Shown: positions 8,108-51,679, counted from the whole stretch's first letter. The stretch is DNA of 51,679 nt, filler included, from Jimgerdemannia flammicorona (GCA_003990765.1; 2 parts of 2 records of this genome joined end to end with filler, not necessarily neighbours in it); one strand, 5' to 3'. Notes: a model not told the origin generated them from the letters alone. Program-made: numbers and translations.

Positions 8108-9916
8108 GTCGTTGTCGAGCTCGAGGTTGATTTCGAGGTTGATGTTGGGAAGTCAAGACAGGAAACGATACGGTAAGAGAAGCCCTTTAACTACACTCTG
8201 AAATTTCTACCGACTCCCAGTTGATACGATACGCGTTCGTATATGAGCGATCTCCGTTCACGGCAATGGAGTCGGGATCGGGGCGGGTTGTGGCTCGGCT
8301 CGCGGGTTACATACGGGTTCGTGACGGTGACGGCCAGCCGTTTTCGGCGCGAAGGGAACGGAGAGACCAGAGCGTTCAAATTCCGTCTATTTGAATTTTT
8401 GTTTTTTTTTTTGTTATTTGTTAGACGACAAACAGTATTGTCGTCCTAGGGTACCGATGACAAACAGTATTGTCGTTGGGTACCCGGAGTTCCCTTGACC
8501 AAGGATCATATTTCCAAAGATATTAATATCCAAGTACTCTAATCGATCCACTCGTACTCTATTTCCATGGATAGTTCCATGTACTCTATTTCCACTGGTC
8601 GTTGTACATCTCAAAGAGGGTCCGGTGGGTTGGGTCGACGAGCGCTTTTATAGCAAAGTCCGAAGAGTGGCATTGTGGGATTGTGGATGCTGAATTTTTT
8701 GCAGTTATCAGGCAAACGCTCATTGGCCAAGTGAGCTAGAGGCCATTTCTCCAAGCTCGCGTCATCCATAGCCACAGAAATCAGATCATTTGGTGACGTA
8801 GAAGCACGTGCCAAAAACCAAGCCCATACCGTGTCCAAGCATGTAGTCTCTTCGCCATCGTTCCTCATTGTCATCCCCTATCCTCATCATACCAGACGAA
8901 CTATTTCAGGTATGGCCATCTCCAATGGGATACCGAAGCCGCGTGATGCTGGAGATATTCCAGGTTGGAGTAAACGTTTACTTTTTCCAATGTGCCGAGC
9001 TGCCAGCTGACTATAGGTATGGATTCATAAGGAGACATCTTTTAATTTCCCTTTCCTGTGCGGCGAGCAAAAGGATTGATGCGCGTTCCTTCTTTTTCTT
9101 TTGTTCGTCTTGGAAAACTTTCATTTGATATTTTTATTTTCATTTTCTATCTAAACTCTTCATTGTCTCATTATCACAAGAGTTGACTAATGCTGTCACC
9201 CTCTGCCCAAAAACCACACGTCCCGCAAGATCTTGCTGAACCAGTACATGGATTCGGACGACAAAGTGATGATATTCCCTTTCTTGAACGTCTTCTTTGA
9301 TGGAACCTTTTTGATGCCATACACCTCATCGCACTTCCCGCTTCTTTTCTACAGGTAGTCGATTACATAACTTCTCGGCGTCACAGTTTGGCTGGGTTGA
9401 TGGGGCAAATAGGTGTGAGTAGATGTTTGATATTAAATCGACGTAGAGGCAAGGTTGCACTATGCCTGACCGCGCCTCGTCACATATACTTCTTTTCAGC
9501 TCTTCGTCACATCGTACCGTATGACCTCTCAGCTCGCCGACCTCACTTACCTATCTTGCCCTGCCTGATCGTCGGCGCGGTTCTTGAGCGGGGAGATGCA
9601 CCGCAAAGATAAAGGTTGAGATGGTACCATTGTGAGGAGCTCAACTGCACTCGTGGCATCAGGACGTATTGGCGTCAAAGGCACTAACGAGCATAATACA
9701 TATCGTTGAGTTTGAAGAACAGACTGGCTATGGGAAATTCGACCACTGCACGACGATAGAGGCCACCACGGAATGGACAACGTTTTTTTCTGCACAAGCA
9801 TGACAGGGAGAGAGTTGTTGCAGCTGTGACCATTGTTCACCTACGAGCAAAATAGCAAAATATTTTATCTAGCACATTAAAATATTTTGGGTATATGATC
9901 GAGACATATGTAGTAA

Positions 9917-10193
9917 TGTTAGGGGATAGAAGTTGTTCAAATTAGTTATATAATATTTATAGCTTTGTAAAATATCTCCTTAATTATAAAAATGACAGAT
10001 GTATTTTTTTCAAGTTTAATAAGTTTCAGATATTTTCTTAATAGAAGTCTTTGATTGTTATAAGCTAGATATTATCAGAGATCTCAGAGATAGAGATAGT
10101 ATAAATAGAGATTACATATATTTTAATTTATACTAAAACCGAACTTATCTGTCTTGATAAATATCTGCTACTGAGATATAATCTGTACTAACA
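9917..10193. mobile_element. Possible solo LTR
   Basis: TGTTAG...CTAACA ends, TATAAATAG box near 10100, ~277 bp; flanks AGTAA/ACTAT match only 3/5. Confidence 0.35.
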
Positions 10194-10535
10194 ACTATTA
10201 TAGTTCAGAAAATAGTAAATATAAATATTATATTAAATAAAAACTAATTATTTTAATTTTAATATTAGTTTTAGTTAAATAAGTTAAAATTAACCTATTA
10301 TTATTTAGTAAAAGAATTAATAAAGATCTAATTTTAGCTATATATTTAAAATAAAAAATAAATTATATTAAAAAATATAACTTAAATATTAATAAAACAT
10401 CTCTTGTTCTTTTAGTAATTTTGTAAAAAATCTCAATAAAAGGTTATAAGTTTTACTAGTATCAGTAACTAAAAAAAAACCCCCCTTAAATATATATTAT
10501 TATAATAAAACTATATACTAATAGAATTAATATAT

Positions 10536-12430
10536 TGTGAATAATTAAGATAACTATTAGTTCTAAGTTCTGAGTTTTTATAAGAAAGCACTAAGTTCCA
10601 ATTATCAATTATAGTAGTATATTTAAGTATCACTTTCAAGTTCTTATACTGATAGAGATACTATACTTATATCTCAAATTAATTAGACTCAGAATTGTTA
10701 ACAAGTTAGATCTGAGAGTTTTTGATAAGAATACTGATTTATTCTTATATTCAGAAAAAGCAGAGCTTCAGGCTTAATCTGGAAAGTATACCAGATAATT
10801 GACTGTTACTTTTTTTTTTAGCTTTTAGACTAAAATTATAATATACTCAGTATAGAAAGTATTTTTACAGATTTGGGACTATGGCTAAATATAGTATACT
10901 GGATATATCTATATGTAGTTATACTATATATGATATCTATAATTACTATATTGAAAATTCTATTGAAATTTCCAGTGACTTTATTGCTATATAATAAACT
11001 ATTATATTCTTCTTTTCTTTTATAAAAAGTAATAAAATATTCTATAATTTTATTATTATATAATGAACTATTATATTCTTTCCTTTAATAAAAGGTAATA
11101 AAATATTCTATAATTTCTCTTAAAAAAAATAAGTACAGATTCTCTTATTTATATTATATAAATTATTTTGACAGTTTCTTTATTAGAACAGATTCTTAAA
11201 GTATAGATGATTTCTGTATAATATAGATATTTTGGTAATTTTCTTAATAAGATAGATTCTTGTATATAAATATTTTAGCAGATTTTCTTAAAATAGTTAA
11301 TTTCTCAAAAGAGTGTAAATTTCTAAATAATATAGATTTTATATAAAATAGTAGATTTGGTGAATTTCTCAAATAGTAGTTAATATTAATTTTTCAGAAT
11401 TTGAATTGTCTAAGTCAGAGTCTGAGGATTTAAATTATCTAAGTCAGATAAATATATAATAGCAATTCTTTAGGATTCAAATCATCTAAGTTAGATAGAC
11501 TTTTTGAGTAGTATAGATAATAGTAATTTTCAGATTTCATCAGAAAGTAGACCAAGATCAGATAATTTAAGTTTTTCTTAGAGTTATCTACACTTTAGAC
11601 TTCTTGAGAAGAAATTACTTTAGTTAGAGTAACTTTTTGCTACTACTAAATTATAATATAGATATTTTCTAATTTATTTGACTTTGTCTAGAAAGCAAAT
11701 TCTTGAGTTCTTTTAACTTTATCTAAGAAGTAAATTCTTGAGTTCTTCTGGTCTTGTCTGAGAAGTATACTAAAATATAATAGATTTCTAGCTTAATCTG
11801 ATAAGTAGAGACTTTTTTTTTTGTATCAGAAAGTAAACTGGAGTAAAAAGAAATAAAGCTTATAACTTTTAGTAGTAGCTCTTAGTAGATATTCCTCCTA
11901 AGTATTACAATCATCTATAGATCAAGTGACTCTTAGTCAGTATTCTCTTTCTAAGTATATCAGATAATTGATTTTTACTTTTTTTCTATTTTCTGACTGA
12001 GATTACAATATACTCAATACAGAGAATATTAATATAGATTTGGGACTATAGTTAAATATGATATTCTAGGTATATCTATATAGTTATATTATATATAGTA
12101 TATATAACTAGTGCTCTTAATAAATCAAATTGAATTAAATTTGATCCAAACTTAATTTAATTCAAATGAAATCAAAGGTCTAATTTGATTTGAGATTCAA
12201 TTCAAACTCTATTTTTTGAAATATAATAATCTGATAAAAACATATCCAAATTTAATGATCTTTAGCTTGTTAAATTTTATCATATTTTCATCAAGTTATT
12301 ATATTTATAAAAATAGGGTTTAAATTAGACTCTCAATTCAATTTGAATTTGATTTGATTTATTTAGAAGTACTATCTGTAACTACTATGTTGAAAATTCT
12401 ATTAGAATTCTATTAGAAATTCTGTTAACT
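10536..12430. mobile_element. Heavily decayed LTR-like sequence related to the Gypsy LTR, with an internal duplication
   Basis: 10784-10972 is repeated at 11953-12410; 11823-11880 resembles LTR segment 13704-13765 (ATCAGAAAGTA.AC..GAGT..AAAG...TAG.AGTAGCT). Confidence 0.5.
12109..12374. mobile_element. hAT-family MITE (266 bp)
   Basis: Ends TAGTGCTC...AGAAGTACTA; ATTTGA/TCAAAT subterminal repeats; degenerate 8-bp TSD TATATAAC/TCTGTAAC; empty site TCTATAAT at ~10936-10943 in the duplicated copy; left end matches the hAT end at 51558. Confidence 0.75.
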
Positions 12431-12683
12431 ATTATAATTATACTATATATACTTATTTATAATATAGATCTAATAATCTCTTTAATAATATAATCTAAAG
12501 AATTACTTAAAGTTTAAATAATAAATAAGAGATTATAATATTATAAAAATAAAAAAATACTTATATAAAAATTATTTTTAATTTATTAGATTTATAAGTA
12601 TAGTCTATATTATATAAGTTTATATTTTTTAAAATATAAATTTTAGTCTATATTGATTAGTAAAGATAATTTTATATATAGAC

Positions 12684-12908
12684 TACTCTTTTCTCTACTA
12701 TTATATTAGTTATAAGATTTTAGTAGACAACCTTCTGAGTCTTTTTTCTATAACTTTTACTATCTCTACCTTAGATTAGTTTGCTGTATCTATTTCAGAA
12801 TAGTAGGAGAGAGATAATGATGATAAGTTGTCTTTTTATCAGTACCAGATTAGTACTTTCTCTACTTTTTTATAGTTTCTGATACCTCTGGCTATATCTG
12901 GAGTATAT
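12684..12908 (+). mobile_element. 5' ~225 bp of a third, heavily mutated copy of the 1.2-kb poly(A) retroposon, interrupted by the Gypsy LTR
   Basis: Colinear with the reverse complement of 43256-43035 (TTAGTTTGCTGTA, GATAAGTTG..TTTATCAGT, CTTTCTCTACTTTTT); similarity stops exactly at 12908. Confidence 0.8.
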
Positions 12909-14110
12909 TGTAACATGCCTGGCTCAATGGAGACAAATTACAAGATTGGGAGTTGGTGTAGTTTGGCTTGAGCCCCCAGTTACTTTATTAAAAGCAATAA
13001 AATGTTCTTGATATTTAGTGGTATAATAGTTAAAGCTAGATATCTGCAAGTGATTTATATATTAATTTCCTAATTGAGATAGTTCTCTAGATATAGTAAT
13101 GATCTATATAGTATGGGTATTCTCCAAAAGTATGTAATTTCTAGGTAATGATCTCTTGTATAGTGCTGTGGGTTCCTTATATATGACAGTCTGGCAATTT
13201 GGTAGATTTCTTATATGATCTCTATATAATGATCTCTGTGTAGTATATTAGATTCCTTATATAATCTCTGTATGATAATCTCTATATAGTATGGTGGATT
13301 TCTTATGTATGATATTTTAGTAATTTGGTGGTTGATTCAATTTGGCATAGATTCTCCTAAATCAGCTTACTGGGAACAAATGAATAACTCAGATAACCTG
13401 GATAACTTGGATGATATAGATTCTTTCTGAATCAGTAGGGTTCTTCTGGGAATGTAGTAAATAACTCAAAAATGGCAGATGATGTAGATAACTTAGATTC
13501 TTGATAAGTTACATCAAAAACTGGCTTTATTTGCACTAATGAATCACTGTGAAGTTGTATCAGATAGACTGGCTTATGGCAAGAATGGTAGGCTCTCTGG
13601 GAATAGTGGATAACCTCAAATGGCAGTAAAGTTCTTCCTTGAACTTGGTGGATTTCTTCAGACTTATCTGGCAAGCAAACCAAAAATATAACAAACTCTT
13701 CTTTATATCAGAAAGTAGACCAGAGTGGAAAGGAATGCTTTGCTCATAATCTTCTAGCAGTAGCTATAGAGTTTCTCTCAAAGTGTAGTAGATAGACTTA
13801 ACTTTTACTTTGGATTCAATTTGGACTGAGGTTTATTTACTCTTATCTCTGGAGTATTTTATATATTATAGTTGCTATCTAGTTACTATGTGGCTAACTA
13901 TAGATTTGCTATTTATGATAGATATGCTGGTTTGGTACAAGTATGTAGGTCTAGTATAGGTGTACAGATCCTGCATAGATATATCTTATCTAGTAGTCTG
14001 GCTATTTATACAGTTTTCTGCAGTAATAGTTACTATGTCTGGTTACTATACTATGTGTTCATATCATCTGGCTAAGTTATAATTCAGGTGGTACATTTTG
14101 GTTTGTCACA
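12909..14110 (-). repeat. 3' LTR (~1.2 kb) of the Gypsy element
   Basis: Minus strand TGTGAC(14110)...GTTACA(12909), preceded by purine tract TTAGTAGAGGCTGA (14124-14111); internal degenerate tandem repeats at ~13095-13330. Confidence 0.8.
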
Positions 14111-14150
14111 TCAGCCTCTACTAAAGGATGGTCTGTCCTCAGACTGTCCT

Positions 14151-14663
14151 TTAGTCATCATTCCACTATAGATAAGTATCTTCTGTATCAATATCTGTTC
14201 TATCATCTTCATCATCTATACCATAGTTGCTCTATTCCAAGGGTTCTTCTTCTTCTGAGAATAGGATTTTGACAGCATTGATGATGCTCAGATAAGTAGC
14301 CAGGTTCATTCTTCATATATCATACCAGGGAAATTATACTTGTAACAAGGCTGCAGGGTTATATTTATAAAGGGTGTAGAGCCTGTCTACAGTAGTGATA
14401 TCTCTTTTTGATAGTCCTGTAGTATTTCTCATATATGTTTGTTCTGGGGCTGGAAGGTTCTGTAATTGTTCTCCAATCATATAGTGGGTCTGAAGTTAAT
14501 GAATCTGCAACAATCATCTGGCCAGAATAAGATTCTCTTAATGAATCTGAAATTTCTAAAGGATATTTCCATTAACTTCTTGGAATTGAGGTAGGGGAAT
14601 TAGTAGTAATTAAAATGAGCTAAGGATAAGAGTCTGGAGGTAGTTGTCAACTCTCTGACTCAT
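14151..14663 (-). pseudogene. Extra ORF (~170 codons) between integrase and PPT, unknown function
   Basis: MSQRVDNYLQTLIL...THYMIGEQLQNLPAPEQTYMRNTTGLSKRDITTVDRLYTLYKYNPAALLQV... plus an acidic tail; in-frame stops are TAA/TAG/TGA, restorable by single transitions; one frameshift near the 3' end. Confidence 0.6.
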
Positions 14664-14699
14664 GATATAGGAAAAGGTATATCTTGAGATAATTGATAT

Positions 14700-15720
14700 A
14701 TACTGGTATTCTCAGAGTTTGTCCATCCATACCTCTTAAATAGATACTGGTTTCTCTGATATTGTGCACAAGATAAGATCCTTCCTATTTGGACTCTAAT
14801 TTGGTGGTGAAGTTTGTTTCAATTATACTTCTACAAACTAATACTTTATCTTCAATCTTGATCTTCTGATCTTTCTGTTTCTGGTCATAATACTTCTTTT
14901 GTCTTTCTTGAGCTTTGGTAATCTGAACTTAGGCCTGATTATGTAACTTTTCTGCCTTCTTGAGGAGGTCTTCAAGATTCTTATGGTCAGCAGTTCTGGT
15001 TTTCTTAGAAAATATAATTTCAAATAGCTTTTGTTTAGTAAAGGTAGTAGGGGTATTCTGAATTTCCCATAGAATCTCAGGTAAGCAAAGATTCCAGTTG
15101 ACAGGATTGACTCAGGCAAGTTCTTTCTTGATGATCTGGTTCATTCTTTCTATCATGCCATTGGTCTGAGAGTAGTATGATATGGTCTGCTTGAGGTGGA
15201 TTTTGTGAATTTAGGTATAACTTGTAATTATGTTATTGATGAATTTCATATCTTGGTCAGAGATAAGTTCTTTTGAGGGTCCATATCTGAGTGTGAGTCT
15301 ATAGAGAAGGTCTACAATAGTTAAGGCATCTGTGATTTCTATTGGGAAAGCCTCAGGCTACTTGGTCAGATGTTCTATAAATACAAGGATATACTTGTTT
15401 TTTCTTGGTATGTATAACTAGTAGAAGTCCAATTATATCTACTCCCCATCTCTGAAATATGTTATCTGATAGTGTGATTGGTTATAGTGGTGTTTGGTAG
15501 TTCTTTCTTCCTTGGTACTTCTGGCAGGTATCACATTTCTTGAATATATATCAGACTTGTGTTCTGAGATTGAGCCAATGCTGATATATTATTTGCAAGT
15601 TTTCTTCTATGTTTGCTTATCCTTAGTGGGCTTTCTGATATTCCTTTCAGATGAGATCTTCTTGTATCTTAATGGTCTGAGGAGCTTTATTTAGAGTATA
15701 GTTCCTTGGAACACCTTTCT
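14700..15720 (-). pseudogene. Gypsy integrase remnant (zinc-binding, core, GPY/F); no chromodomain seen
   Basis: KCDTCQK; LISDQDMKFINN; YSQTNGMIERMNQII; KAQERQKKYYD; KLESK*EGSY. Confidence 0.9.
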
Positions 15721-15749
15721 TCTGATTCATTAGGACTGGCAGGAAAGTA

Positions 15750-16980
15750 TATCAACATTGCTGTAAGCTTTTCCTACTTTATAGATGATGGTGATTTTGT
15801 AATCCTAAAGGATAAGGATCCAGTGGGCTAGGATTCTAATAGGTTTCTTGCAGTTGAATAGCTATTTAAGGGCTGCATGATCTGTGATCAGAGTGAACCT
15901 TTTTCTGATAAGATAATGCTTAAACAGAGTGACTGTCAATATGACTGCAAGCATTCCAGTTTGGTGCTACCATAGTTCATCTATTGCTAATTGATAGCTT
16001 GGCTTATATAAGCTATCATATGGTATTATTAATCTAGTCCTTTTTGGGCTAAAACTGTTCCTAGGCTATCTTTGGAAGTATCTGTATACAAGATGAATGG
16101 CTTCTATAGATTGGAGTGTATAAGAATTAGTGCTGTAGTTATATGGTTCTTGAGTTCTTTGAAGGCTTTCTCTTGTGATTCTGTCTATTTATAAGGTACT
16201 TCTTTCTTGAGAAGGACTCAGATTGGGGCAGTGATTTGGGCAAAGTCCTTGATAAATCTTCTGTAGTAGGATACTAGCATCAAGAATGATAGTATTTCTT
16301 TTGGAGTCTTAGGTACTGGCCAATTATTGATCTTCTCAGTTTTCTTTGGGTCTGCATAGATTCTTTCTTTTAAAACTATGAATCTAAGAAATTCAAGTTT
16401 CTGTTTTCTGAAGTAGTATTTCTTTGCATTGAGTCTCAGATAGTTCTTGTAGGTGAGCTTGAAGAATTCCTCTAGGTGGTGCAGGTATTCTTCAAAATTT
16501 GCTAAATAGATATTGGAATCATTATGTATACAATCAGGCAGTAGTGGATCAAGGGGGCATAGACTGAATTTATCATCCTCTGAAAGGTGGAGGGTATATT
16601 GCAAAGTCCAAAAGGCATTCAGAGATATTCAAACAATTTACCTAGGGTAAGAAAGGCTGTCTTTCAAATGTCTTTGGGGTCTATGGAGATCTTATGGAAT
16701 CCTGTGAAAAGGTCCATACTGCTGAAGTATCTGATATCTTATAATTGATCCAAAAGCTCATCAATTCTGGGCAAAGGATAGACATCTTTTTCAGTGACTG
16801 AATTGAGTTTTCTGTAATCTACACAGAGTCTCCATCCTCCTTTCTTTGGTACAATAAGTATAGGGCTGGCTCAGGGACTAGTAGAGAGTCAGATAACTCC
16901 ATTATCTAAGAGTTCTTGAATATGCTCCTTTTCAAATGTGTTTAAGTAATAGGGTATTCTATAGGGTTTCTGTCAGATGG
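15750..16980 (-). pseudogene. Gypsy reverse transcriptase and RNase H remnant
   Basis: [90 protein letters not shown]. Confidence 0.95.
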
Positions 16981-17624
16981 GTATTGCTTTTCTTGTATTT
17001 ATACTATAGTGATATGATGGATTGTATAGTAGGTTACTATAATCAGTGGTGAAGATATCTTGATATTTATTGAGGAGTTCAACTAGTTGTTGCTATTGTT
17101 GGGGTATTAATTCTTCTCTAATATTGGTGGAAGGCTTCACTGTCTCCTGAGTCGCAGAGTGGCCTTTTCTTTCTTCTGGGACCTTTTGCTGTTTCCCAAT
17201 AGGTTTAGTTCATAAACTTCCCTATGAGTTTAGTTGAGAAAAGGTACCAGATTTCCTATAATAGTTTCTTTTGGTAAGATGATGGTCTCCCAACTTTGGT
17301 TGGTTGTTCAGGAGTGCACCAGATTCATCTTGTTAGAGAATGTGTATCCTTCTATATCCAAGTATGGGATATCTTCATTGAATTCAAAGAAAAGGTTCCT
17401 GGGGTCAGGTGGTATAAAGATTTCGAAGGTAGTTTGTTCTCTAGGCTCCAGGATGAGATTCTTGTACAGTTTGACTAGTTGGTAGTATACTTGCTGAAAA
17501 ACATTCCTCTTAAGGTAGTTGACTTGTAGGAGATGTACTTTCTTCTTGTCTGAACTTCCAAATCCTTTGGCTTGTCTTATTTCTTTGGTCAGTTTGGAGA
17601 CTTCTTGTAATTGTGGAGTCTTGG

Positions 17625-17950
17625 CCTTCATAAAGACTGCTTGAGTAATCTTCTGTCCTCTAATGATTCAGTGCTATTCTGTACTACTGTTGTATAGAAT
17701 GACCTTGATTTTGCCTGTATATCCTGAGTTAATAGTTCCTCCTTCTATGGTTATTCCTTATCTGGTAAGTCCAGACCTTGAGGTCAGTTAGATGTAAGCT
17801 CCTTGGGGTGGTTGTATGGCTAGTCCAGTTCTGATCATGAATGTTTTTCCAGACTTGATGGATTCATCCTCCAGACTGTGAATATTATATCCTATATCTT
17901 CTGGGTGAGCTTTGGTTGGGGGTTTGGCCTTGGGATATAGCAGGGTATAC
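17625..17950 (-). pseudogene. dUTPase domain within the Gypsy pol
   Basis: AKPPTKAHPEDIGYNIHS (motif I), IRTGLAIQPPQG, TSRSGL (II), GGTINSGYTGKIKVIL (III), GQKITQAVF (IV). Confidence 0.9.
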
Positions 17951-19244
17951 TGGGTGATATCCTTGCTGAGTTTGGGCTGTCCTAGGGCTGAAGCTCCACT
18001 AGCAGAGAGCCTCTAGGCTCTGAGGTTGAGGTGTGGCCATCTGGCTCCAGTAGAGGGATCTTGGAGATAGTTGATTCCTCTTCTTCTTATAGGATCTAGA
18101 GCTTCTATTAAATTGGTGGCATCCTCTGCCCATTCTTGGTGGGTGATATGTCTAATAAGAGCTAGGATGTCTTCTTCTAGATTGTAGATCTTAAGAATCC
18201 TTCTTTCTGGCTTCTTGGTCTGGCTTTTTCAGATCTGGCCTCTGTTATCTCCTCTATTCAAGGTGTGGATCATGATATCATAACTGAGGTGAATCTTCTG
18301 ATATCTGCAGTCTCAACAGTCTGGGTGTCTTCTATGGTTACAATATCCCATTGCTCAGAAATGATATTTCCAGTTGTTGATCTCTTGTTGTCTCAAGAAT
18401 CAGTACCCATCTTGGTCATAAGTTGGAGAAAGAGTAGACAAGGGGTATACTTCTGTTTGGGTGAAGAGATCTTGTCCTCTGAATTGTCTTTGCAACTTGG
18501 TGATAACCTCTTGGAAGGTAGTTAACTGTGCAACTATATTTGAGGGTTCTGGTCTCTGAGGTCTCTGTCTCTTCTGTTGGTCTAATAAATGGTACTGCTA
18601 GCAATAGTCTTAAGGAGAGTGGAAGACTATTTGGTATAGACATCTTTCTAGCCAAAAGCCCTTTCTTGGTAAGTTTCTTTCTTAGGAATAATGGAGATAA
18701 TGCTGGATCCTTTTTCCATATTCCAAGGATCATTATTTTCAGATAGTATCCAGCAAGAGTTATCTCAGAGAATGAGTTTGGAGACCTCTTCTTCTTCAGA
18801 TGCTTCTTGTTCAGAAACTTCTTGGTCAGAAACTTCTTCTTCCTCAGATAATTCTTGGCCCCAAATTGCTTATACTTCTGCAGCTTTGGCTGCAGGTATT
18901 TCTGAAATATATCTGCATTTCTTCTTCTTCTTTCTATTCTCTAGGCAGGCTATGCCAGGTGATTTTCTTGTCTCAATGATCTTGGAGGAGTGCTTGGGGC
19001 ACTTGTGTCTCTTGAGGTAGGTGGGGTATCTTTTGATTTCTCCTGCAATGGCTCCAATAGTAATGGGGATAGTATTTTTGGCCCATACATTGTCTTCTGG
19101 CCTGTCATCCACTAGGTTGATCCTGGGATTGAGTCTGGGATCATTTCCATCTTCAGATTCTTCTTCTTCCTCTGTGGTAGACTCTCCACTACTGATATAT
19201 TCTTCCTAGATATTGACCTTCTTCTTTTTCTTTAATTGCTCATA

Positions 19245-19600
19245 GCTGGTCACCTTAACTCTATACTTCTTGCCTCAGTAGTCAAACTTGAGTACTTGTT
19301 GACTGATATCAACAACTGCATTTATTTCCTTCATCCAATTAGTGCCAAGGATTATATTATAGATGATAGCTTCAGTGATAATAGCTTTTGGGATGGAGAA
19401 CTAAATGTGTCTAAGGGAAATAGTGATGTTTTATACTTCACCAAGAGGTTGAGTTCGAGCTCCATCTGCTACTATGATTCTGAGGTTGAATGGTCCATCA
19501 ATGAGCCATTGGAGGGTATTCAGGAATTATTTGGCAATAATATAGACAGCTACTCTTATATTTATGAGAATTTTCACCTTTGTCCTCCAATATCTCCATG
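19245..19600 (-). pseudogene. Retroviral-like aspartic protease remnant
   Basis: KILINIRVAVYII (= ILIDTGAAVCII after transitions), IVADGARTQPLGEV, IILGTNWM. Confidence 0.8.
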
Positions 19601-19619
19601 TAGATAGGTACTGATATGT

Positions 19620-20295
19620 CTTTCTACAGCTTGGATAGGAATGGAAGCTAGTTCTTATTGTGGGATTGAAACTTGGCCAGTGCTAGACCTGGTGGTCCTC
19701 AGTAATTTGTTTTAGACTTCAGCTAGTATCAGTTGCAGAAACTACAGAAGAGGGACTTCTATCTTGGCTTCTTGAATCTTCTGCCAGGCTTCATTGTAGA
19801 TGTCTCTGGACATGGTTTTCAGGGTGTACTTCTTCTTAGGTTTTGAGACAGCAGGTTCCTGTTCTTTTTGTTCCATTTTCTCATCTTCTGGTAGCAACTT
19901 ATTTGTCTCAGAGACAAAAGGTGAGGGGGTCTGGAGAGGTGTTTCTACTTGCTCTTCCTCATGTTCTTTATCTTCTTCTTAAATAATTTTTCTGCTGATA
20001 TTCCTGGATGGCCTTTCTATGGGTCTCTTCCTTTTCTCTGCTGGGTAGACTGTTTTTTGGATAGTAACCTTAGTAGGGTACAAGTCTAAATTACTATAAT
20101 CTTCACTGTTGCTTGCTTCTTCAAAATCTTCAATAGGATGGACTTCAGTCTTCTTATACTGGGTTTTATTCCTTCTGTTTGGTGGTTCTGAGTTCCTTTG
20201 GTCACTTCTTTTGTTGTCATATTCAGTAGCATAGTGTCCAAATTGTCTATAGTGGAAGTATTGGACTTGGGCTCTATCTTGGACAGGGTATCTTC
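19620..20295 (-). pseudogene. C-terminal part of gag with a mutated CCHC zinc knuckle
   Basis: QYFHYRQFGHYATEY at 20263-20219 has CX2CX4HX4C spacing with all three Cys replaced by Tyr. Confidence 0.8.
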
Positions 20296-20387
20296 CATCT
20301 TTCTCTACTACAATTCGCGTTACACACACTTTTACAACACACTTTCAAGGCATTTATTGGAGAAAGATACTAAGGCAATGTCGACTA

Positions 20388-22446: not shown

Positions 22447-22477
22447 AGGATGGGACCATGATATATTATTTTTCTTT

Positions 22478-26001: not shown

Positions 26002-26038
<37 letters not shown>

Positions 26039-27323: not shown

Positions 27324-27362
<39 letters not shown>

Positions 27363-27570: not shown

Positions 27571-27696
27571 AATGTTAGAACTAGATAATATCTTGTGGAT
27601 AAAATAGTTATAACTCAGTTTAACATTCTATTTAATCTGACACTATGTAATATTTTGCTAACTTTAGGACTATCTATTATTTCATTGTTATGAATA

Positions 27697-40184: not shown

Positions 40185-40189
40185 TTAAT

Positions 40190-40946
40190 TATATGATCTC
40201 TTTTTCAGCAGAAGATTAGAAATCAATAAATTGAGTTATTGATAGATTTTAAGAAGAGTATAATATGATTTTTCATATCTTCTACCTTGTATGAGATCAA
40301 TCTTTAGTTTTTGGATGAGTAGTAGCTTGAGTGGTAGCTTGGGCTTAGACAATAGCTTGGACTTAGACAGTAGCTTGGACTTGGATAGTAGCTTGGGCTT
40401 GGGCAGCAGCTTAGACTTGAGTGGTAGCTTAGGCTTAGGTGGTAGCTTGTGCTTGAGTGGTGGCTTGGGCTTGGGTGGTAGCTTGGACTTGAATGATAAC
40501 TTGGGCTAGAGTAGTAGTAGCTTAGACTTAGACTAGGGCTTAGACTAGGACAGTAGTAGCTTAGGCTTAGGTGGTAGCTTGGGCTTAGGCAGTATCTTCA
40601 GGGATCTTAGGGGTCTCAGAAGTAAAGACTTCAGAGATAGCCTAAGAGATAGCTTCAGATACAGTTCTTAAGATAAATTACTTGATTGCTTCTTCAATTT
40701 TCTTCTTCTTCTTGTATTTATAGATTCTTCATCATCCAATCAGATGATAACCTTGTTGATAGCATTGTTCATATCCTCAAAGACTCTAGAAAGATAATTG
40801 ATATAAAATTGAAGTTTTTTATAAGATGAGATTATTTTTTGTATTTTGTTTTTTGTTTTTTGTTTTTTGTTTTTTGTTTTTTGTTTTTTGGTTTTTAGTT
40901 TATTTTTTATTATTAAAGCCAGCTTATTTATATATATTTTATCCAT
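40190..40946 (-). pseudogene. Decayed ORF with an 18-bp tandem repeat (40318-40592), probably ancestral Pro/Glu-rich repeat
   Basis: Units AAG CCC AAG CTA CCA CCC revert to GAG CCC GAG CCG CCG CCC by undoing transitions; one long frame broken only by transition-type stops; cut by LINE C. Confidence 0.45.
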
Positions 40947-41038
40947 ACTTATTACAATATCTGAAGCTCTCAGCTTATGCTTATTGCTTATAGGCTTATA
41001 GACTTATACTTATTATAATATTTGAAGCTCTTGGCTTA

Positions 41039-41134
<96 letters not shown>

Positions 41135-41450
41135 GCTTTTAGCTTATACATACTTATTGCTTACAAAACTTTTGACTTATACTTATTGCTTATAGAATTA
41201 TAGACTTGTAGGCTTTTATTACTCATAAGATTATAGGCTTATAGACTTTTGTTACTTATAGGATTATAGGCTTATAGGCTTTTGTTACTTATAGAATTGT
41301 AGGCTTGTACTTATTGCAATATTTGAAGCTCTCAGCTTATACTTATTACTTACAGGATTGTAGACTTATACTTATTGTAATATTCAAAGCTCTTGACTTA
41401 TACTTATTACTTACAGAATTATAGACTTACAAGCTTATAAGTATAAGTAT
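40945..41450. repeat. Degenerate GCTTATAC/GGCTTATA tandem array with long poly-T tracts
   Basis: Repeated CTTATACTTATT, TAGGCTT and TGAAGCTCTCAGCTTA motifs; T-runs at 41042-41131. Confidence 0.8.
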
Positions 41451-42065
41451 TTCAGATATAGTAACTAAGTATATATAATATATATTTTTAAGCTTTAAAT
41501 ATATTTAAAATTCTATATATTATATAATTTATACTACTTATCATCTATTCCTAGTACTTCTGGGCAGATATAATGATATCTTACTCATCTCATTAGAACT
41601 AGAAATAATAAAATTATATTCAAATATAACAATCAGGTATGTATTTAGAAATTATATTTAGATATGGTATATCTATAAGTTCTGAGTCATACTTATATGT
41701 ATAATATGATATCTGAGTACTATATTTATTTGGTATTTTGAAATTTAACTATATTTTGAGATTTAAGATCAGCTATTATTATTGGAATACTAGACTGATT
41801 ACTATGCCTTTAAATACATATATTCATGAATTATTTTAGAGTCTAAAGTATCTCTTTTAGCTGTTATAAGATCTTTACTACTTGAAAAAACTCTCTCAAT
41901 TAGAGTACTTGTTACTGAGATAGTTAAGTAGTTATATGCCATTTTTGCTAAATTTGGGAAATCTCTACTATAGCCTTAATATTTCCAATTAATTAAATCA
42001 ATTAGAGAAACTTAAATAATATTTCAAATTGACCTAATTCAAATATAAATTCCCAACTCACTTGC

Positions 42066-43256
42066 TTTTTTTTTTTTTTTTTTTTTAATGGACTCATGTC
42101 CCACAGATTTTTATTGGAAGGGAATCTAGACTATATAGGCCAAAACCCTCCCCCACCACCCACCAAGCACTGCCCCCCCCATTAATCTAGGCTAGCTATT
42201 GTCCAGCAGCTTGACCATGCTAGGCACAGCAGGGCTGATTAGACCCGTACCTTATTCTGCGCACCATGCTCTCCTTACCATCAGGGGAAACCCAACTATA
42301 TGCCAATGACCAAAAGCGCATGCCTGAGAACCCAATGTATGTACAAGGCCATGCCCAAGCCAAATAGAATAGCCCCTGCCACCCCAAAGAGAATGATAGG
42401 CAAAGAAAAAACCCTCATCAAAGCACAATACGGTGGATAGGGCCTGGTTCTCCCAGTTGAGGTAAGTAAAGGACTTACACATAAGGTGGGAGGAAACCCC
42501 CAATACCCCACTACTCAAGCCTGCGGGCCTCAATCACATTGCCATGTCAGCTCCCAGTTTTAGTTGAGTGTAGCCAAGATGCCTGAAATGGGTAGCCTCG
42601 AGCCTCCTGACCCCCCCTGATGACTGGGGCCCAACCCTGCTAACTGCCAAAAGAAGCCGATAGTGATACCTACCATCTAACCATGCCGTACCAATCAAAA
42701 GGCCCCACCAAAGCAGTACCTGCCCCAGCCCCAATGACTGCCCCCAGCCTAGCACCCTACTGGTTTACCATTATTGCCCTTCCTCCTATCTGTGATGGCC
42801 ATCTCCCCTCTCATCCCAACAACACCCAAAAAACAGTCACCTATGCTAGAACTGTGCTTGCTGAGAAGTTCGCCAAAGCCAGAGAGCCCCACCACAGGCA
42901 CCGAGGACCTGCAGGTAACCTATACTGAGCACTTGACGCCCAAGGTCAGCCAACTCCCTACATAGCCTGAGACACACTGAGACAACTTCTTGTTGGTGAC
43001 AGCAAAAGGAAGAAGGCACTGCACCAAAACAAGTACACCCCAGATGCAGCCGAAGGCACCAGAATCTACGAAAAAGTAGAGAAAGCACCGATCTAACACT
43101 GATAAAGGGGCAACTTATTACCATTGCCTTCCTCTCACTATGCCCCTGCAGGTACAGCAAACTAATCCAAGATAGAGAGGGTAATAATAGGGGAAAGGGG
43201 ACTTAGAAGGTCACCTACCAAACCTTATGACCAGTAAGGTAGCAGAGAAAGGAGTG
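42066..43256 (-). mobile_element. Non-autonomous poly(A)-tailed retroposon, copy 2, inserted in the hAT transposase
   Basis: T-run 42066-42086, AATAAA signal, 14-bp TSD CCCAACTCACTT(G/A)C at 42052-42065 and 43257-43270. Confidence 0.9.
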
Positions 43257-43762
43257 CCCAACTCACTTACTATCAAGATAATATATCAACTCCTGCTTAA
43301 AATTTAACAGTTTTACTTTTTAAATAAGCATCTATCTCTTACTCAGAATTTGTCATCAGTTTTTGTCTTTTATTGAATATATATTTATATAGTGTAGCAT
43401 TGACATTATTTTCTACTTCTTCATAATCTTTAGAACTTATTTAATTAATTGATTCAGATAGAGGAGTATAGTTTTTATTATAAACTATATAAAGTTTATC
43501 TTTAGCCCTTTAATCTAAATATCTTCTCAATCATGTGATAAATAATATTCTAGCTTACCTGAGATTGAGTACTGGTTTTTATTAAAAAATAAAATAAAAT
43601 AAAATATAAAATAAATTAGTAGTGACTAACAAGCAAATTTTGAAATAGATTTATACTATCTCCAACATTAAGTAAATTTTGAAATATTTACTTACTAGTA
43701 TTAATATAATAAATTGGAGTATTTGTTATTAAATAATATATCTTTAACTTAGTAATAGCTAT

Positions 43763-46700
43763 TTTTTTTTATAGTTACTTAGACTATATCTTTATTACTA
43801 CTCTCATCTATAATATAATATTACACAGTATTCCCCCCCCCTATTCTATCCTATATAGAACTCTTCTATCCCTATTCTTTATCTAAGAGACTCTCCTATC
43901 AGATACCTCAATTCTCCCTCTACTCTTTACTACAATTCTCCTCACCAGCTCCTTCTGACTCCCTCCCTTGGGTCCCTATCCAATCTACTATCTATTCAGA
44001 AGTTCCAACATCAACCACTCTCACCTCACCTCTCTCATATCAACTACCAACCTGGAGCTCTTCTTAAAGACACTCTACTAGTATTCTATGAGTCTAACCT
44101 ACATAGCTAACACCCATCCAACTATCAGCCACTTTATCCACACTACCTACTAGATATAATTATAGGACTACCCACCTTCTACCTCCTCCTGATACCAGGG
44201 CATCTACCCCCAACCTCTGCCCAATCCTTTCTAGAAAATCTCCAAGCTCTTACACTCCTCTAGTCAATGTTTCAGAGTCTGTACCACCCCACCCTCCTGC
44301 CTAATATCATAGCATTTCTCACAATTAAAGGAACCCCCTTTCACTAAGTACTCTGACTAGAAGTTCAGTATCATATTCTATCTCAGGAACCTCTACCACA
44401 TCACTCAGAACTTGGGTGAGAGCTATCTCACTACTACTTTATTCTATGACTAGATATCAGCCTAGTTCTATCCTTCACCAATATCAACCCCCTGCTAGAT
44501 CTCAGATCAGAAATCCCTCCCCTGTTCTCCAAGGTACTCTATTCTATCCTTGAGGCTAAAGTTCTCCATCTGACTACCTCTCAATAGAAGACAGTTCCAT
44601 CTCCACATCCTAGGCCTCCAGTCTTCTTCTCTCTTCTTATCTCTCTATCAGATATCAATATAGTGAGCTCCATTAACTGCATCTTACCAAAAGCCTTTGT
44701 AGTATATCTTTTAGCTCTCCTCCAGTACTACTAAAGAGAGCAAGTTACTAGAACCTCTCAATATCCACATCTCCCAAATATATTATATTAGAGGTACCTA
44801 TTCCTCTCCCCTCAGCTTATTAGTATACTTTAACCACCATACTCTTAAGTAGTACAGATATTTGGTAAAGTCTACCAGGCCAAGCCCTCTATAGCCCACA
44901 GACACTGTTAGTACCTTTTATCTAATTTGACTGTACCTCCTAGCTCAGAGCCATGAGTGGGCCATTTTCAAAAGTCTCTTAATCACTTATTTCAAAAAGT
45001 CAATATGGTAGCCTAGGTACTACCGCTTCAGCATCCAGTATATATTCAGCACTATTATCCTTTCTGCCAATGAAATGTGTCTACCACCTTAGCCTACTAG
45101 TACCTTGCTCCATTCTATTAGCTTTCATTCCCACCACTCCTTGGATAGCAAGGAGCCATATATGAGAAGTAGATCCCTAGGTATTGGACTATCTCTTCAG
45201 CAGAGATAATTATTCCAATAATATCTCCCCCTATCACCTCTTTATTAAGTATTATTATCTCACACTTATGCCAGTTGAACCTCACTCTAGAGTATCTCTT
45301 ATACCATTCTACTACCCCCTTCAGCATGGCCATATTCTTTACTGATCCCCATCTAACCACTATGTCATCTGTAAAGGTCCCCACCTTCCAATTTACCCCA
45401 AGAATATACAAACCTCCTACTTTATATCTGATCCTATCCAGCAATAGTTCTAATGCAAAAGCATAAAGAATAGGAGAGAGTGGGTTCCTCTATAGTACCT
45501 CTATTTTAAGAGAAAAGGAGGCTCTCCTATGACTATTAGCCAAAATAGCTGCCCAGCTCCCCTCCAGTAGACTAATAATAGAGCATCAAATGTCCTGGGG
45601 AATACCAATATATTACAGTATTCTATCCAGCCAAACTCTCCAAACTCTGTCATAGGTCTTCTTCTGATCTAAGAATATTAAATGACCATCTACTCTTATA
45701 GTCCTTACCCCTTCAATAATACCATGGATCTAAGCAGTACTATCTCTAATAAGGCAATTCTCTATAAAGCCCCTCTGCTCTTTCTCTAACACCTGTTGAG
45801 TCACTCTCTGCAATCTGGCCACCAGAACCTTTATCACCATCTTATGGTCCATGTCAAGAAGTATAATCAGCCTCTAGTTTTTTCAATCTTCCCTCCTCCT
45901 CTTATCCTTATATAACAAAGTCACCAGTCCCAACTACTGTCCTCCAATCTATGCTCCAGAGTCAATAACCTCATCATATATCTGTACCATCTCCTGTAGT
46001 ACCTCCTCAACTACTGCTATCTTCTTTCAAAAATCCTATGGCAATCCATTCTCTCCAGGAGTAATATCAAGACTTATTGAAGCCAGGATCTAGAGAATTT
46101 CCTCCCACTGTACTGATACTCTAAGTTCCCCCAGACCCATAGCTGGAACTGAGTGCCACTCTTCCAGATATCACTCAATGTCTAGCAAATCCTCCCCTCT
46201 CTCCTTCTCACTCTAAAGTCTACCCAACAACCACTCAGCTGTTTCAGTATACTCTGTACCCCCACCACTATCTCACCAGTCTCATCCAATACTCCATTCT
46301 ATCTATACCATACTCCTCTTACTTAGAGGAATCTTGACAGAAACTTGGTAGATTGCTCTCCTTTCTCTAGTCTCTACCATCTCAGCCTAACCACCAATAC
46401 TCTCATCCACATATTCTTCTCTCTTCTCAGTAAGTTCTGTAGCTCAGCAATCTCTAACTTAGCCTGCTGAGCCCTCCAGTCCATCACCCTTTTCTCCTCC
46501 AATAGTCTTATCTATGTTTTCAGTAACCATTCTAATCACTGAGATGTCTACTAGACACTCCTCTGTCTCTGAGTACTCCATGCCTTCCCTGTCTCCTCTC
46601 AAAAACACTGAGTCTCAGACTTTAGTCTATATCACCAGTCTCTAATGCCCAGATCTACCACCTTTTACATAATAATCTAGAACTTAATCCTCCTCTCTCA

Positions 46701-49486
46701 GAAATTCCACAGATCAGCTTCATCTAACAGAGAGGAGTTCAGATATATCCAGGTCTCTCCCCACTTCTTCTAAACCTCCCTCTACCCTGGACACTCTAAT
46801 AATCTAATCAGGGGTACCATTCCATCTCCACCCTCTCCCAGACCATCTCTCCCTAGCACTCAGCAGTCAAAATCCAATCAATTCTAGAGCCTAGCCCTCC
46901 TGCTCAATATATATATCTGGTAGTCACTACTCTATAGTCTCACAGTATCTATCAGAGCACCAAGCCTCTCAATCTCCTTCTAGTCCTCTATTCCTCCACT
47001 TCTCCCTGATATCCCCCTTCCTCCATCAGTTCTGTCTAGTCTGCCATCCTGGACTATATTAAAGTCCCCACCCAGACAGTCCACTCCAGCCCCTACCAGA
47101 GCCCCAAAGTCCTGCAATCTCTATATCTATTTCACCCTGGCCCTTCTCTCTGCCAAATAGTAATAAGAATCTACAACTATGTTGCCCCAGCCTGGCCTCT
47201 GCCATGACCCTCATATCAATCTGCTTCTCTAATATCCAATGTCTCCAATATTCTCCTTCCCCTTCCTAACTAATATTTCCACCTTTTTCTACCATATTGC
47301 TCCCCCACCCCCCCCCCCCCACTCTCTTGTCTATTCCAATCTGTCAATCTCTACCTTATACTGTATATTCTAAAGTAGAAATACATCAGTATCTAGTTTC
47401 CTCAGCCAGCCAAAGATATTGCAATATCTCCCTGCCCCCTGAAGTCTATTAACATTTATAGAGAATATGTTAGTTGTATGTTCATGATAAATAATATTAT
47501 AGAGGTATGAAGCTACTCTATAATTCTATACTCATATTCTCTCCTGCCAAATCCAAGTTCCACTCAGTCTTGACCTCTGCCTCCAATCCCTACTGTTCAT
47601 CTAGAGCTATCAATAACTCTATATAATCCTCTCTATTCACTATTTCCATAGATGTATGGTACTTCTCACACACTATCTACCATTTTATCAGTCTGTTCCT
47701 TAGTCCCCATAGATATACTGCCTGATTATTTACAATATCCAGAAGAGTTGCCACTTAGGCCACATCTATCTCATATTTCTTCTTCTCTAATAGTGCTGCT
47801 ATTATCTCATCTCTCAGCTTCCTCACCACCCCCTTACCTCACAGTACTTCTCCTCAGAAGACCTCACTGATCACTTGAAAGTCCACCTCACCCAACTCCT
47901 CTACCACTACATTCATCATTATCTTCTACAGCCACTTCTCTCCACCAACTGTCTTCTTCTCTCAGGCTGTCTCCTGCTCTCCAGCTCCACTGCTCTCCCC
48001 CTCCTTAGTCCTTCTAGATTCATCTCATCTATCCTCTGATATATCCTACAGCTCCTTCTTCCCAATATCAGATACTCCATACTGAATTAAAACACCCTCT
48101 ACTATCTATATATCTGCTATCACCACCTCTAACTCTGGACTCTTTGCTCTCTCCTGGCTCTCTCTCTGCTGCCCTATTCTGGCCCATATGTTAGCCCTTA
48201 CACCCTCTCCACTAGCTACCTTGGTCCCCTTTGGGGCCCCTTTCAGACTTACCAACAACTCCTTCTGTGCCTTCCTCCCTTGAGTCTTTTCTTAGAGAGT
48301 CCAGTCTATCTACACCTTCTTGCTATTGACAACCTCAACCACCATTTTAGCCTCATACTTCTTCCAAGTTTTCTGCCTCTTCTCAAACACCTCCACTGTA
48401 TTTTCTAGTATCTCTAGTAGGTCCTCCTCCTCTTCCAGCATTTCTATTACCCTTAATATCTTATATTCTATAGGTTCCCACCTCAGTACTACTGGCCAGT
48501 CCCTTTCTTTCTCAGTATTCTCCTTCTCTACCAGTTTTACTTTGATATCTATATCTCTAGTCCTGAGCTCTATCTCCTCTCAGACTTGATAAACTCCTTG
48601 ACTGTATCCACCATTAGTTGTCTCACCTTCTCTTTCTTGATAGTTAGTAGGTCTACCACCACTAGCTATACCATCTGGGGGTCTCAGTATATATATATCT
48701 TACTATCAGAACTACTACTCTCTCAATCTCCAGTCTCTTCTCCAAAGCCCCCAACAATAACTCCTCCCCCTCAAAGTCTATCTCCACTAACTTAAGCTTT
48801 TTCAAGAACTTTACTAAAGCTGCATCTTTCACTTCCTTTACCAAGAACCCCAGTACTATCTTTACCATCACCACTAAGCCTTAGAAGCACATTGTGACTA
48901 TAAATTTAGATCTCAACTTCTTAAGTAATGGTGTTACCACTAGCCCTATCATACTATCAGCAAGATTACTAGGCCTCATGCTCTTCTCACAACTCAGTCT
49001 ACTATCAGCAGTTCTATCTAGATTTTTTTCCAAATTGCCTGTCATACTTCCATCAGTAGTTACTTCTTTAGTTACTATACTACTAGCTCCACTATCTTAG
49101 CCTCTTAGAGAGACTCTCTCCTTCTTTTCTACAGCTACTTTCCCCTTCTCTAGCTCTAGCTATCTATCCAGTCTTATTATCTAAGCTCTCATCTTAACCT
49201 TATCAGTAAAGGTCAATCACTCTATTCTCTGCTATCTTATTCCATCTCTTTTACTACCACCAGCCCTCTGGCCTTATAGAGCAGTACTTGGTATCCCCAA
49301 ATCTGTATCTTGACCTCTTCTTACATACTGCTAGTCAAAGGTACTGGGGCTGCTCTGCCCTGTATGCTCCCTAGATTGCTCATTGCTTACTATATTATTA
49401 TTATCTTTTTATTAAAATTATTGATTAAAGTTTTATCTGAAGTTTGTATAACCTAAATATTACTGGAGAAAAAGGTGAACTGAGTG
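43763..49486 (-). mobile_element. L1/Tx1-like LINE copy D, full length, heavily mutated, inserted in the hAT transposase
   Basis: 17-bp TSD AACTT(A/G)GTAATAGCTAT at 43746-43762 and 49487-49503; short poly(A) (T-run to 43770); AATAAA; ORF2 ATG at 47485; VNWKVGTFTDD. Confidence 0.95.
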
Positions 49487-50189
49487 AACTTGGTAATAGC
49501 TATAGTTAGTATTAGGTAAATAATATTTAACTCTTCTGTATATTTTCAAATTTCTTGATCATTATTCTTCAATATATCTATTAGAAAGTTATAAATAGAA
49601 ACAGTAGAATAAATTATTGAATATTTATAATAAGTTATAAGATCTGTTATTTGTTTAAGATACTTTAGCATATTAATAATATCTTTTAGTATCTGCTAAG
49701 TATAGCCTTCTATAGTATATTTTTGCAAATCTTTATTAGCTATAACTGTTGAGATTAAAGATTATTAATAAATTAAATTATTTGATTATTTGAAGAAAAA
49801 ACTAAAAAATAAAAAAATTAAATATAATATAATCAGCTTACCTCTAATAATTCTAAGATCTATTCAACTATTAAATATATTGAATTCTATCAAGTTTTAA
49901 TATTCAAAATAAGTTTTTTAGATTGCAGACTTCAAAAGCTTTATATTATATAGTAAATCTCTCTCAATATTATAGTGATGACTAGATCTTAATAATAATT
50001 AATTGGAGCTTTGAAATTATTTCTCCAGAACCATTTTCACTCATATCATTATCAGCTTTTAAATAGACTAAAAAGTCTTGAACAGCTAAATTAATAATAT
50101 GAGTTAGATGGTATATATATTATATTAACTAATAGTTGAAGTTAGTATGATTAAACTCTGTTCTAATTATTTAAAAAAACATGGCATTG

Positions 50190-50340
50190 TTGAAACCCCA
50201 ACCTTTTTTAAAAACTCAACCTTTTTTAAAAACCCAACCTTTTTGAAAATCTGATCTTTTTCAAAAACCCAACTTTTTTTTTAAAAATCTAACCTTTTTT
50301 GAAAACCTAAACTTTTTAAAATATGATCTTTTTGAAAGAC
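50190..50340. repeat. ~20-bp tandem array AAAAACCCAACCTTTTT within the hAT transposase
   Basis: About seven degenerate units read directly from the sequence. Confidence 0.8.
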
Positions 50341-50950
50341 TTATTCTCTATATATCTTTGTCTATATATCAAAATCTCAAATATAGTTTATAAAGACACT
50401 AGTAAGATTTTTACCTAAATGAGATTCTGATAGCTTGACAAAATCAATTAATATATAGTTGAGTTACCAATTTTGACAAATTCAGTATATATTAATTTTA
50501 AGAAATGTATATATATTGGATAATATCTATGTATCAATAGTGAAGGATATTTGACCAAATCATTTTATTTTATCAAAATAAGATTAATTCAAAGCTATTC
50601 AATTTTGAGATATTTAAATTTATATTCAATATTAAAATATTAAATCTTATCTATAGTGTAATTTTGATGATATTATATTTTTATTAAAAGACCAGTCTAA
50701 TTTTATTTCATATAGTTCTAGCAGAAGGAATAGTAATATCCAGTTTCAGAAGATAAAAAAGATCTGCTTTGAATTCTTAATAACTATAAAAGGCTGACTA
50801 TTATAGATAATCTAGTAAATAAATTTATCTTAAAATAACTTTACAGAGAATCTTGACTATTTAGAGAATTATTAAGTAATAATAAATTAATAATAAGAAT
50901 AATAAAAAAAGAAAAAAAAGTAGATAAATTATATAAAAACCATATATTTG

Positions 50951-51008
<58 letters not shown>

Positions 51009-51679
51009 AAAAAAAAACATATATTTAAAAAAAAAAAAAAAAAAAAGACTCTATTACTTCTATTTGATAACTTTTATGAAATTTGTTGAAATATATCTAT
51101 AAATTTATTATTGAGCTACTAATAGCCTTATATGATACCTTATAATAGTTATATTTAATTTAAATATCTCTATTTTCCTTATACTTCTTTATAAACTCTT
51201 TCTAAATATCAGATTACTCTTGTATTTTCTTTTTTCTTTCTCAGATAAGATTATACTTATTGAAGCTATATCTGATACTGAGGCTGTTGTCATAGTATTC
51301 TCTATAAAGAGTATAAAAAGTATATCTGACATAAATACTTTGGAAGAGTATATATATGTGTATATTGTAAGTTATATTATATATATTTGGAATTATCATA
51401 TTTAGTTTTGAATTTTGAATTTGATTTGATTTGAATTGTGATGTGATTTAATTCAAATTGAATTAGACTCTAATTTGAATTAGTTCAAATCAAATTGGTC
51501 TTTAATTCAATTCAACTCAAATTGAATTAGCTCTCAATTTGATTCATTCTAAGCACTACTTATAACTTTAATATTTTAATTATAGTTTAGTAAAGTATAT
51601 CATTATTTATAATAATTATAAAATTTTTATTAATTGTATTTTATCTCTATTTTAGTTTTTTTTAGAGTTTTTTTTTTTT

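Follow-up and report, generated by a model that had tools for sequence, protein, structure and literature searches.

Introduction

Classical repeat-induced point mutation (RIP) requires a duplication above a length and an identity threshold, and acts before meiosis. In the ascomycete Zymoseptoria tritici, Dim2 methylates transposons (CG 43–61%, CA 10–22%, CC 3–8%, CT <0.01%) and raises C-to-T mutation in repeats during mitosis, at CA, an activity presented as a 'mitotic RIP'-like mutator (Möller et al., 2021; PMC8016269). RID is described as exclusive to Pezizomycotina by Navarro-Mendoza et al. (2023; PMC9963178), who report DIM-2-like homologues in the Endogonales and the Glomeromycota. Here, we analyze a 51,679-nucleotide stretch, filler included, of the genome of Jimgerdemannia flammicorona (GCA_003990765.1), hereafter the window, in which a 42-kb mosaic of dead transposons, extending from about position 9900 to the window end, has lost C to T according to the 3' neighbor, in the order CpG > CpA > CpC >> CpT.

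A sequence-only reading of this DNA, made without knowledge of its origin, had proposed a RIP-like cytosine hypermutation and had supposed that, should the host be an early-diverging fungus, a poorly described defence process was at work, either RIP-like or a non-CG methylation followed by deamination. J. flammicorona, of the Endogonales (Mucoromycota), indeed belongs to an early-diverging lineage, outside the RIP-competent ascomycetes. For its strain AD002, Dataset S1 of Navarro-Mendoza et al. (2023; PMC9963178) lists three DIM-2-like proteins (JGI 471264, 479070, and 483080) with BAH and C-5 methyltransferase domains and, for Endogone sp., a DNMT1 with a replication-foci domain. Endogone sp. 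has a DIM-2-like entry as well, and members of the Glomeromycotina have one DIM-2-like protein each. A kingdom-wide screen, the k-mer part of which took only scaffolds over 50 kb, reports repeat-directed (RIP-like) signatures in ascomycetes only, and gives J. flammicorona in its S1 Table with 231 Mb, 73% repeats, and an N50 of 10,860 (Badet and Croll, 2025; PMC12543289). RIP signatures are stated as not detected in Mucoromycotina by Dallaire et al. (2021; PMC8647823), with reference to Venice et al. (2020); the same paper reports CG methylation on the transposons of Rhizophagus irregularis. Phycomyces is credited with DNMT1, Dim-2, and 2.2% mCG (Nai et al., 2021; PMC7862722), and the Entomophthora genome paper, which reports a RIP-index signal in Zoophthora, raises with caveats the possibility of RIP beyond Dikarya (PMC11105155). 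Searches of the literature on Jimgerdemannia methylation, on RIP in Mucoromycota, and on DNMTs of Endogonales returned no description of a footprint such as the one reported below.

Limitation of the C-to-T Decay to Transposons

The mosaic comprises four copies of long interspersed nuclear elements (LINEs A to D), a Ty3/gypsy element, a hAT DNA transposon, a 1.2-kb poly(A) retroposon present as two full copies and one fragment, and AT-rich blocks (Table 1). Expected CpG numbers were computed from base composition, the mosaic (9901-51679) being divided into twelve segments. The genes at 1-9900 hold 552 CpG for 522 expected, vs. 105 for about 1426 expected in the mosaic. LINEs C and D retain 0 of 194 and 1 of 189 expected, the gypsy element 3 of 248, and the AT-rich stretches 9901-13000, 27214-30900, and 49501-51679 retain 1 of 35, 3 of 57, and 0 of 20, respectively; LINEs A and B still hold 59 of 319 and 15 of 188.

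The border between the two domains is less than 250 bases wide: 43 CpG lie within 9061-9900, the following ones being at 10140 and then at 17153, and GC content drops from 0.47 to 0.09 within 600 bases. Moderately decayed copies have gained TpG and CpA, with a (CpA+TpG)/(ApC+GpT) ratio of 1.3–1.9. The share of remaining C that stands before T rises from 0.23 in the genes to 0.30 in the least decayed copies, 0.44–0.47 in the gypsy element and LINEs C and D, and 0.50–0.65 in the hAT element and the AT-rich blocks, the block at 9901-12685 representing the extreme (65%, with observed/expected ratios of 0.69 for CpA, 0.71 for CpC, and 1.63 for CpT). The limitation of C-to-T decay to transposons, of all the classes present, is confirmed as a real and strong observation, well outside what chance would give.

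Polarity and Sequence Context of the Changes

The two full retroposon copies share 85.9% identity and differ at 164 of 1167 aligned bases, by 160 transitions and 4 transversions; between LINEs C and D, 1049 transitions and 153 transversions make up 1202 differences over 5499 aligned bases. Expressed per base, transitions and transversions amount to 13.7% and 0.34% in the retroposon pair, and to 19% and 2.8% in the LINE pair. When C/T differences with a conserved 3' neighbor were tallied with both strands pooled, the retroposon pair gave 15/23 for CpG, 52/170 for CpA, 34/186 for CpC, and 8/160 for CpT (CpA vs. CpT, Fisher p = 5e-10), and the LINE pair, in which no CpG is left, 399/716 for CpA, 240/563 for CpC, and 122/890 for CpT.

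LINEs A and B, with 61% identity, 661 transitions, and 629 transversions between them, are diverged subfamilies usable only as an outgroup. Changes in LINEs C and D were polarized at the sites where A and B agree, and rates were calculated per ancestral site and lineage. The polarized set consists of 231 G>A, 61 C>T, 19 T>C, and 17 A>G changes and 19 transversions, so that 292 of 347 are C>T or G>A. The rates are 20/21 (95%) for CpG, 121/316 (38%) for CpA, 110/441 (25%) for CpC, and 40/549 (7%) for CpT, against 35/1519 (2.3%) for the reverse T>C change. Fisher tests yield p = 1e-4 for CpA vs. CpC, p = 1e-28 for CpA vs. CpT, p = 2e-14 for CpC vs. CpT, and p = 7e-7 for CpT vs. T>C. These figures bear out the earlier claim that the changes go beyond CpG decay; the non-CpG transitions are strongly biased by context and are not neutral.

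The short retroposon fragment at 12686-12908 provides a third data set, scored over a 239-column comparison at the sites where copies 1 and 2 agree. It carries 13 C>T and 16 G>A changes at 84 C/G sites, 7 reverse transitions at 109 sites, and 13 transversions; by context, 2/2 CpG, 7/14 CpA, 12/21 CpC, and 4/32 CpT have changed. The order CG > CA > CC >> CT is common to the LINE C/D pair, the retroposon pair, and the fragment. The 5' neighbor is of little weight (AC 152/402, CC 196/478, GC 84/224, TC 154/569), and the preference is not of CHG type, since CTG (13/117) is not hit like CAG (113/217). That the 3' neighbor sets the rate is what would be expected of a C5-methyltransferase.

Strand Symmetry and Timing of the Changes

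In the polarized LINE C/D set, the sense strand shows 33/67 changes at CA, 10/40 at CC, and 10/153 at CT, and the antisense strand 88/249, 100/401, and 30/396. The per-context rates are alike on both strands, and the process acts on double-stranded DNA. The sense strand of the LINEs is G-rich and C-poor, with a GC skew of magnitude 0.33–0.59 per kb. Given this likeness of the strands, the hypermutation did not make the skew, which copy A, the least decayed, already has; it looks like an inherent trait of the family.

Retroposon copy 2 lies within the hAT element and is flanked by a 14-base target-site duplication (42052-42065 and 43257-43270) identical at 13 of 14 positions. In the hAT frame, the sole difference, G/A, replaces CAA by TAA; this CpA-type change occurred after the insertion. 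Decay is further advanced in the host hAT element (GC 0.20–0.27, no CpG) than in the retroposon that interrupts it (GC 0.50, 14 CpG), and thus rises from inserted to host element in this nested pair. A DNA transposon having decayed like the retroelements, reverse transcription is unnecessary to the process; together with the change inside the duplication, this indicates that the changes are post-insertional and independent of reverse transcription.

Traces in Coding Sequences

Several codon-level examples given by the sequence-only reading were found as described. The gag knuckle of the gypsy element reads Y-x2-Y-x4-H-x4-Y, with TAC or TAT at all three Cys positions, and its protease motif reads LINIRVAV. 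The TGG codon of retroposon copy 1 (26721-26723, minus strand) faces TAA in copy 2 (42765-42767). In the hAT-like stretch at 43270-43275 (minus strand), TGA TAG is present as claimed; the R-W pair from which it was said to derive is that reader's own reconstruction and, more generally, the ancestral states behind these codons are ones that we infer.

A broader view is provided by the gypsy pol, which was compared with 120 homologues, keeping the columns in which at least 30 homologues aligned and at least 70% shared one residue. Of the 274 conserved columns, 170 are unchanged and 104 differ: 52 by one C>T or G>A step, 3 by one reverse transition, 22 by one transversion, 4 by a double C>T/G>A change, and 22 by other or multiple changes, with 1 ambiguous.

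Organization of the Window

Pfam was searched with stop-free open reading frames (ORFs) and short read-throughs in which X replaces stops. The LINEs show only an APE endonuclease and RVT_1. The AT-rich blocks gave no Pfam match (for 27214-30900, on the parts tried) and are devoid of recognizable domains. Self-BLAST of the window revealed no long terminal repeat pair for the gypsy element. Between the protease and the reverse transcriptase of that element, 17311-17667 (minus strand) matches a dUTPase only weakly (E = 7e-4), its 19.8 bits falling under the Pfam cut-off of 22. Behind LINE A, two runs of 44 N (25791-25834 and 25847-25890) separated by 12 bases mark a scaffold join.

Table 1. Features of the analyzed window of J. 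flammicorona.
Feature	Position	Strand	Evidence or remarks
Gene-bearing flank, internal control	1..9900		CpG kept, spliced genes
Zn2Cys6 (Zn_clus) ORF	2197-3042	+	100% identity, full length, to a J. flammicorona NCBI protein
Sharp border between normal and CpG-free domains	9845..10140		CpG spacing
AT-rich end-stage block	9901..12685		GC 0.20; RIP index +0.18 to +0.54
Retroposon-family fragment, short, heavily mutated	12686..12908	+	Alignment to copies 1 and 2
Dead Ty3/gypsy element	13001..20300	-	RVT_1, E = 4.5e-15, read-through with X at stops
Gypsy integrase motifs	near 15430-15540	-	
Gypsy reverse transcriptase	near 16780	-	
Gypsy protease motif	19545-19568	-	
Gypsy gag knuckle	20219-20260	-	
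LINE copy A, least decayed	20301..25790	+	Exo_endo_phos, E = 3.6e-12, and RVT_1; ORFs up to 340 aa; GC 0.54
Retroposon copy 1	26021..27213	-	Poly(A) tail seen as poly-T run at left end; 9 CpG left
AT-rich decayed block	27214..30900		GC 0.25; 50% of remaining C before T
LINE copy B	30901..34700	+	RVT_1, E = 1.3e-20
LINE copy C	34750..40177	-	78% identity to copy D over 5499 aligned bases
hAT DNA transposon remnant, 3' part	40201..42051	-	Dimer_Tnp_hAT, E = 8.3e-10, dimerization domain 41805-41975; GC 0.27, no CpG, 57% of remaining C before T
Retroposon copy 2, inserted in hAT	42066..43256	-	Target-site duplication; GC 0.50, 14 CpG left
hAT remnant, upstream part	43271..43777	-	GC 0.20, no CpG, 59% of remaining C before T
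LINE copy D	43778..49471	-	RVT_1 fragment 45121-45489
AT-rich end-stage block	49501..51679		GC 0.19; 56% of remaining C before T

Contigs of two public runs cover 1335-9908 with joints that correspond to minus-strand GT..AG, hence this flank bears spliced genes. Within 4600-7390 (minus strand), they skip 5064-5230, 5317-5400, 6169-6242, and 6571-6960, with skip ends CT..AC, that is, minus-strand GT..AG introns of an expressed gene, the ORFs tried there showing no Pfam domain. These two runs, of presumed kind, contain 0.26–0.33 of the words of 1-9900, and no RNA run is listed as containing the sequence. Their contigs cover neither 10006-12673 nor most of 14675-20000. At 12674-14007 they pile up to a summed depth of 546, matching only in part and continuing into unlike sequence; their probable source is further copies of the gypsy 3' end or the retroposon family at other genomic sites.

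Models for the Origin of the Decay

We favor, at a probability of roughly 0.6, a model of transposon-targeted methylation followed by deamination. DIM-2-type (DNMT1-family) methyltransferases, acting in the past or still at present, would mark the transposon block with the preference CG > CA > CC >> CT, and the methylated C would be lost to T on both strands through deamination, whether spontaneous or promoted by the enzyme. CpG would be erased first, then CpA and CpC, CpT would be spared, and the relics of 20% GC would represent the end state. The neighboring genes would lie outside the methylated domain and so retain their CpG. The transposon-limited loss of CpG, the order set by the 3' neighbor, and the likeness of both strands agree with what DIM-2/DNMT1-type methylation and deamination would leave.

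A close parallel is Dim2 of Z. tritici, which is likewise limited to transposons and follows the same order, there for methylation and here for C-to-T loss (PMC8016269); the corresponding enzyme family is listed for J. flammicorona (PMC9963178). In Z. tritici, however, the mutations lie almost only at CA and the abundance of CG is unaffected, whereas CpG is here erased first and completely (PMC8016269). Moreover, Z. tritici is an ascomycete with RID beside Dim2, while J. flammicorona belongs to the Mucoromycota and is represented here by its sequence footprint. Methylation-driven CpG decay, as in Basidiomycota, vertebrates, and R. irregularis, offers a second likeness, CpG being lost only at transposons with a gain of TpG and CpA. 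That model concerns CpG only, whereas about one third of CpA and one quarter of CpC are lost here per lineage, down to 20% GC.

Several points weigh against methylation and deamination. The model presumes 5-methylcytosine on these elements. The early loss of CpG departs from the Dim2-dependent mutations of Z. tritici, reported at CA and not at CG (PMC8016269), with the consequence that this parallel covers the methylation preference and not the observed mutator. Judged by transversions, the LINE pair is 8-fold older than the retroposon pair and yet has only 1.4-fold more transitions per base, which hints at a front-loaded burst of transitions, as in RIP, although a clock with saturation of CpA sites cannot be rejected on 4 transversions. 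Finally, the DNMT1 rows of Dataset S1 go from Dichotomocladium to Endogone sp., with no replication-coupled maintenance enzyme of J. flammicorona at the point where it would fall in the order of species (PMC9963178). Since the J. flammicorona assembly is about 70% BUSCO-complete (PMC12543289, S1 Table), such a gene may be missing.

The same apparent front-loading of transitions, as well as the 40-fold excess of transitions over transversions between the retroposon copies, which have diverged by 14%, is in keeping with a true RIP-like process, which ranks second and which we regard as less probable. Cells would then recognize duplicates, probably near the time of sexual reproduction, and bursts of C-to-T change would be driven by a member of the DNMT family, here a DIM-2-like paralogue in place of RID, until the copies diverge; methylation would be a by-product or absent. 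The block resembles the products of RIP in Neurospora crassa and other Pezizomycotina by its repeat-confined C:G to T:A transitions (292/347 in LINE C/D and 160/164 in the retroposon pair, with the genes untouched), by stop codons that inactivate transposons, by the preference for CpA among non-CpG targets, and by AT-rich relics as the end product. The composite RIP index, computed per kb-bin as TpA/ApT minus (CpA+TpG)/(ApC+GpT), exceeds 0 in only part of the transposon bins (11 of 42, each belonging to the more decayed ones) and in none of the 10 genic bins. The three DIM-2-like paralogues listed for J. flammicorona (PMC9963178), the mutator activity of Dim2 in Z. tritici (PMC8016269), and the RIP-index signal reported with caveats for Zoophthora (PMC11105155) would also fit.

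On the other hand, the first and most completely hit target is CpG, where RIP of the Neurospora type prefers CpA, and the strand-coherent clusters of such RIP are absent. Runs tests for C>T vs. G>A in each of the four copies of the two pairs, a check suggested by the sequence-only reading, gave 40, 35, 212, and 223 runs for shuffle means of 42.9, 34.9, 204.7, and 235.2, respectively; many rounds could have erased such tracts. Furthermore, the repeat fragment of about 230 bases is equally heavily mutated in the same context order, which is weak evidence against a length threshold, and RID is reported only in Pezizomycotina by Navarro-Mendoza et al. (2023; PMC9963178). Altogether, the data support the poorly described defence process supposed at the outset and, without settling the matter, lean to its methylation branch because CpG goes first, the context order is Dim2-like, and strand clustering is absent.

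Two further models are contradicted by the data. Ordinary neutral decay of old, unconstrained DNA under AT-biased mutation, with no targeting, would account for AT-rich relics and for C>T outnumbering T>C overall, and even C before T changes more often (40/549) than T changes to C (35/1519). It would nonetheless give neither a transition/transversion ratio of 40, nor a 5-fold difference between CpA and CpT (p = 1e-28), nor a complete absence of CpG across tens of kb next to a border narrower than 250 bases, and the asymmetry between changes from A/T (36 transitions to about 10 transversions) and those from C/G (292 to 9) speaks against it as well, making it very improbable. Still less credible is the editing of retroelement cDNA or RNA during retrotransposition by an AID/APOBEC-like deaminase, with inserted copies inheriting the edits, for although most elements here are retroelements and the LINE sense strand has a striking excess of G over C, that skew is present in the least decayed LINE and looks family-intrinsic, per-context rates are alike on both strands and set by the 3' and not the 5' neighbor, the changes distinguish copies after insertion (one lying inside the target-site duplication), and the hAT DNA transposon has decayed likewise.

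Concluding Remarks

The footprint described here is RIP-like and is found in a lineage where published screens report none. What the present data contribute is a clean polarized set of four copies and a negative test for strand clustering, to which the DIM-2-like genes already listed in print for this species are joined. For genome annotation, the decay accounts for the stops that fill most of the transposon genes here and for AT-rich blocks devoid of domains.

A more tentative and less probable reading is that Endogonales carry an active DIM-2-dependent mutator, a RIP-like defence without RID that would hit CpG, CpA, and CpC of transposons. If this were true, mutagenic defence against repeats would be older than Dikarya, or one enzyme family would have given rise to it twice, and its machinery would consist of the three DIM-2-like paralogues of J. 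flammicorona. A context-specific C-to-T process that is confined to the transposons of Endogonales and tied to DIM-2-like genes makes the age of the link between DNMT1-family enzymes and mutagenic genome defence a testable question, as well as the manner in which a genome of 231 Mb, 73% of it repeats (PMC12543289), disarms its transposons.

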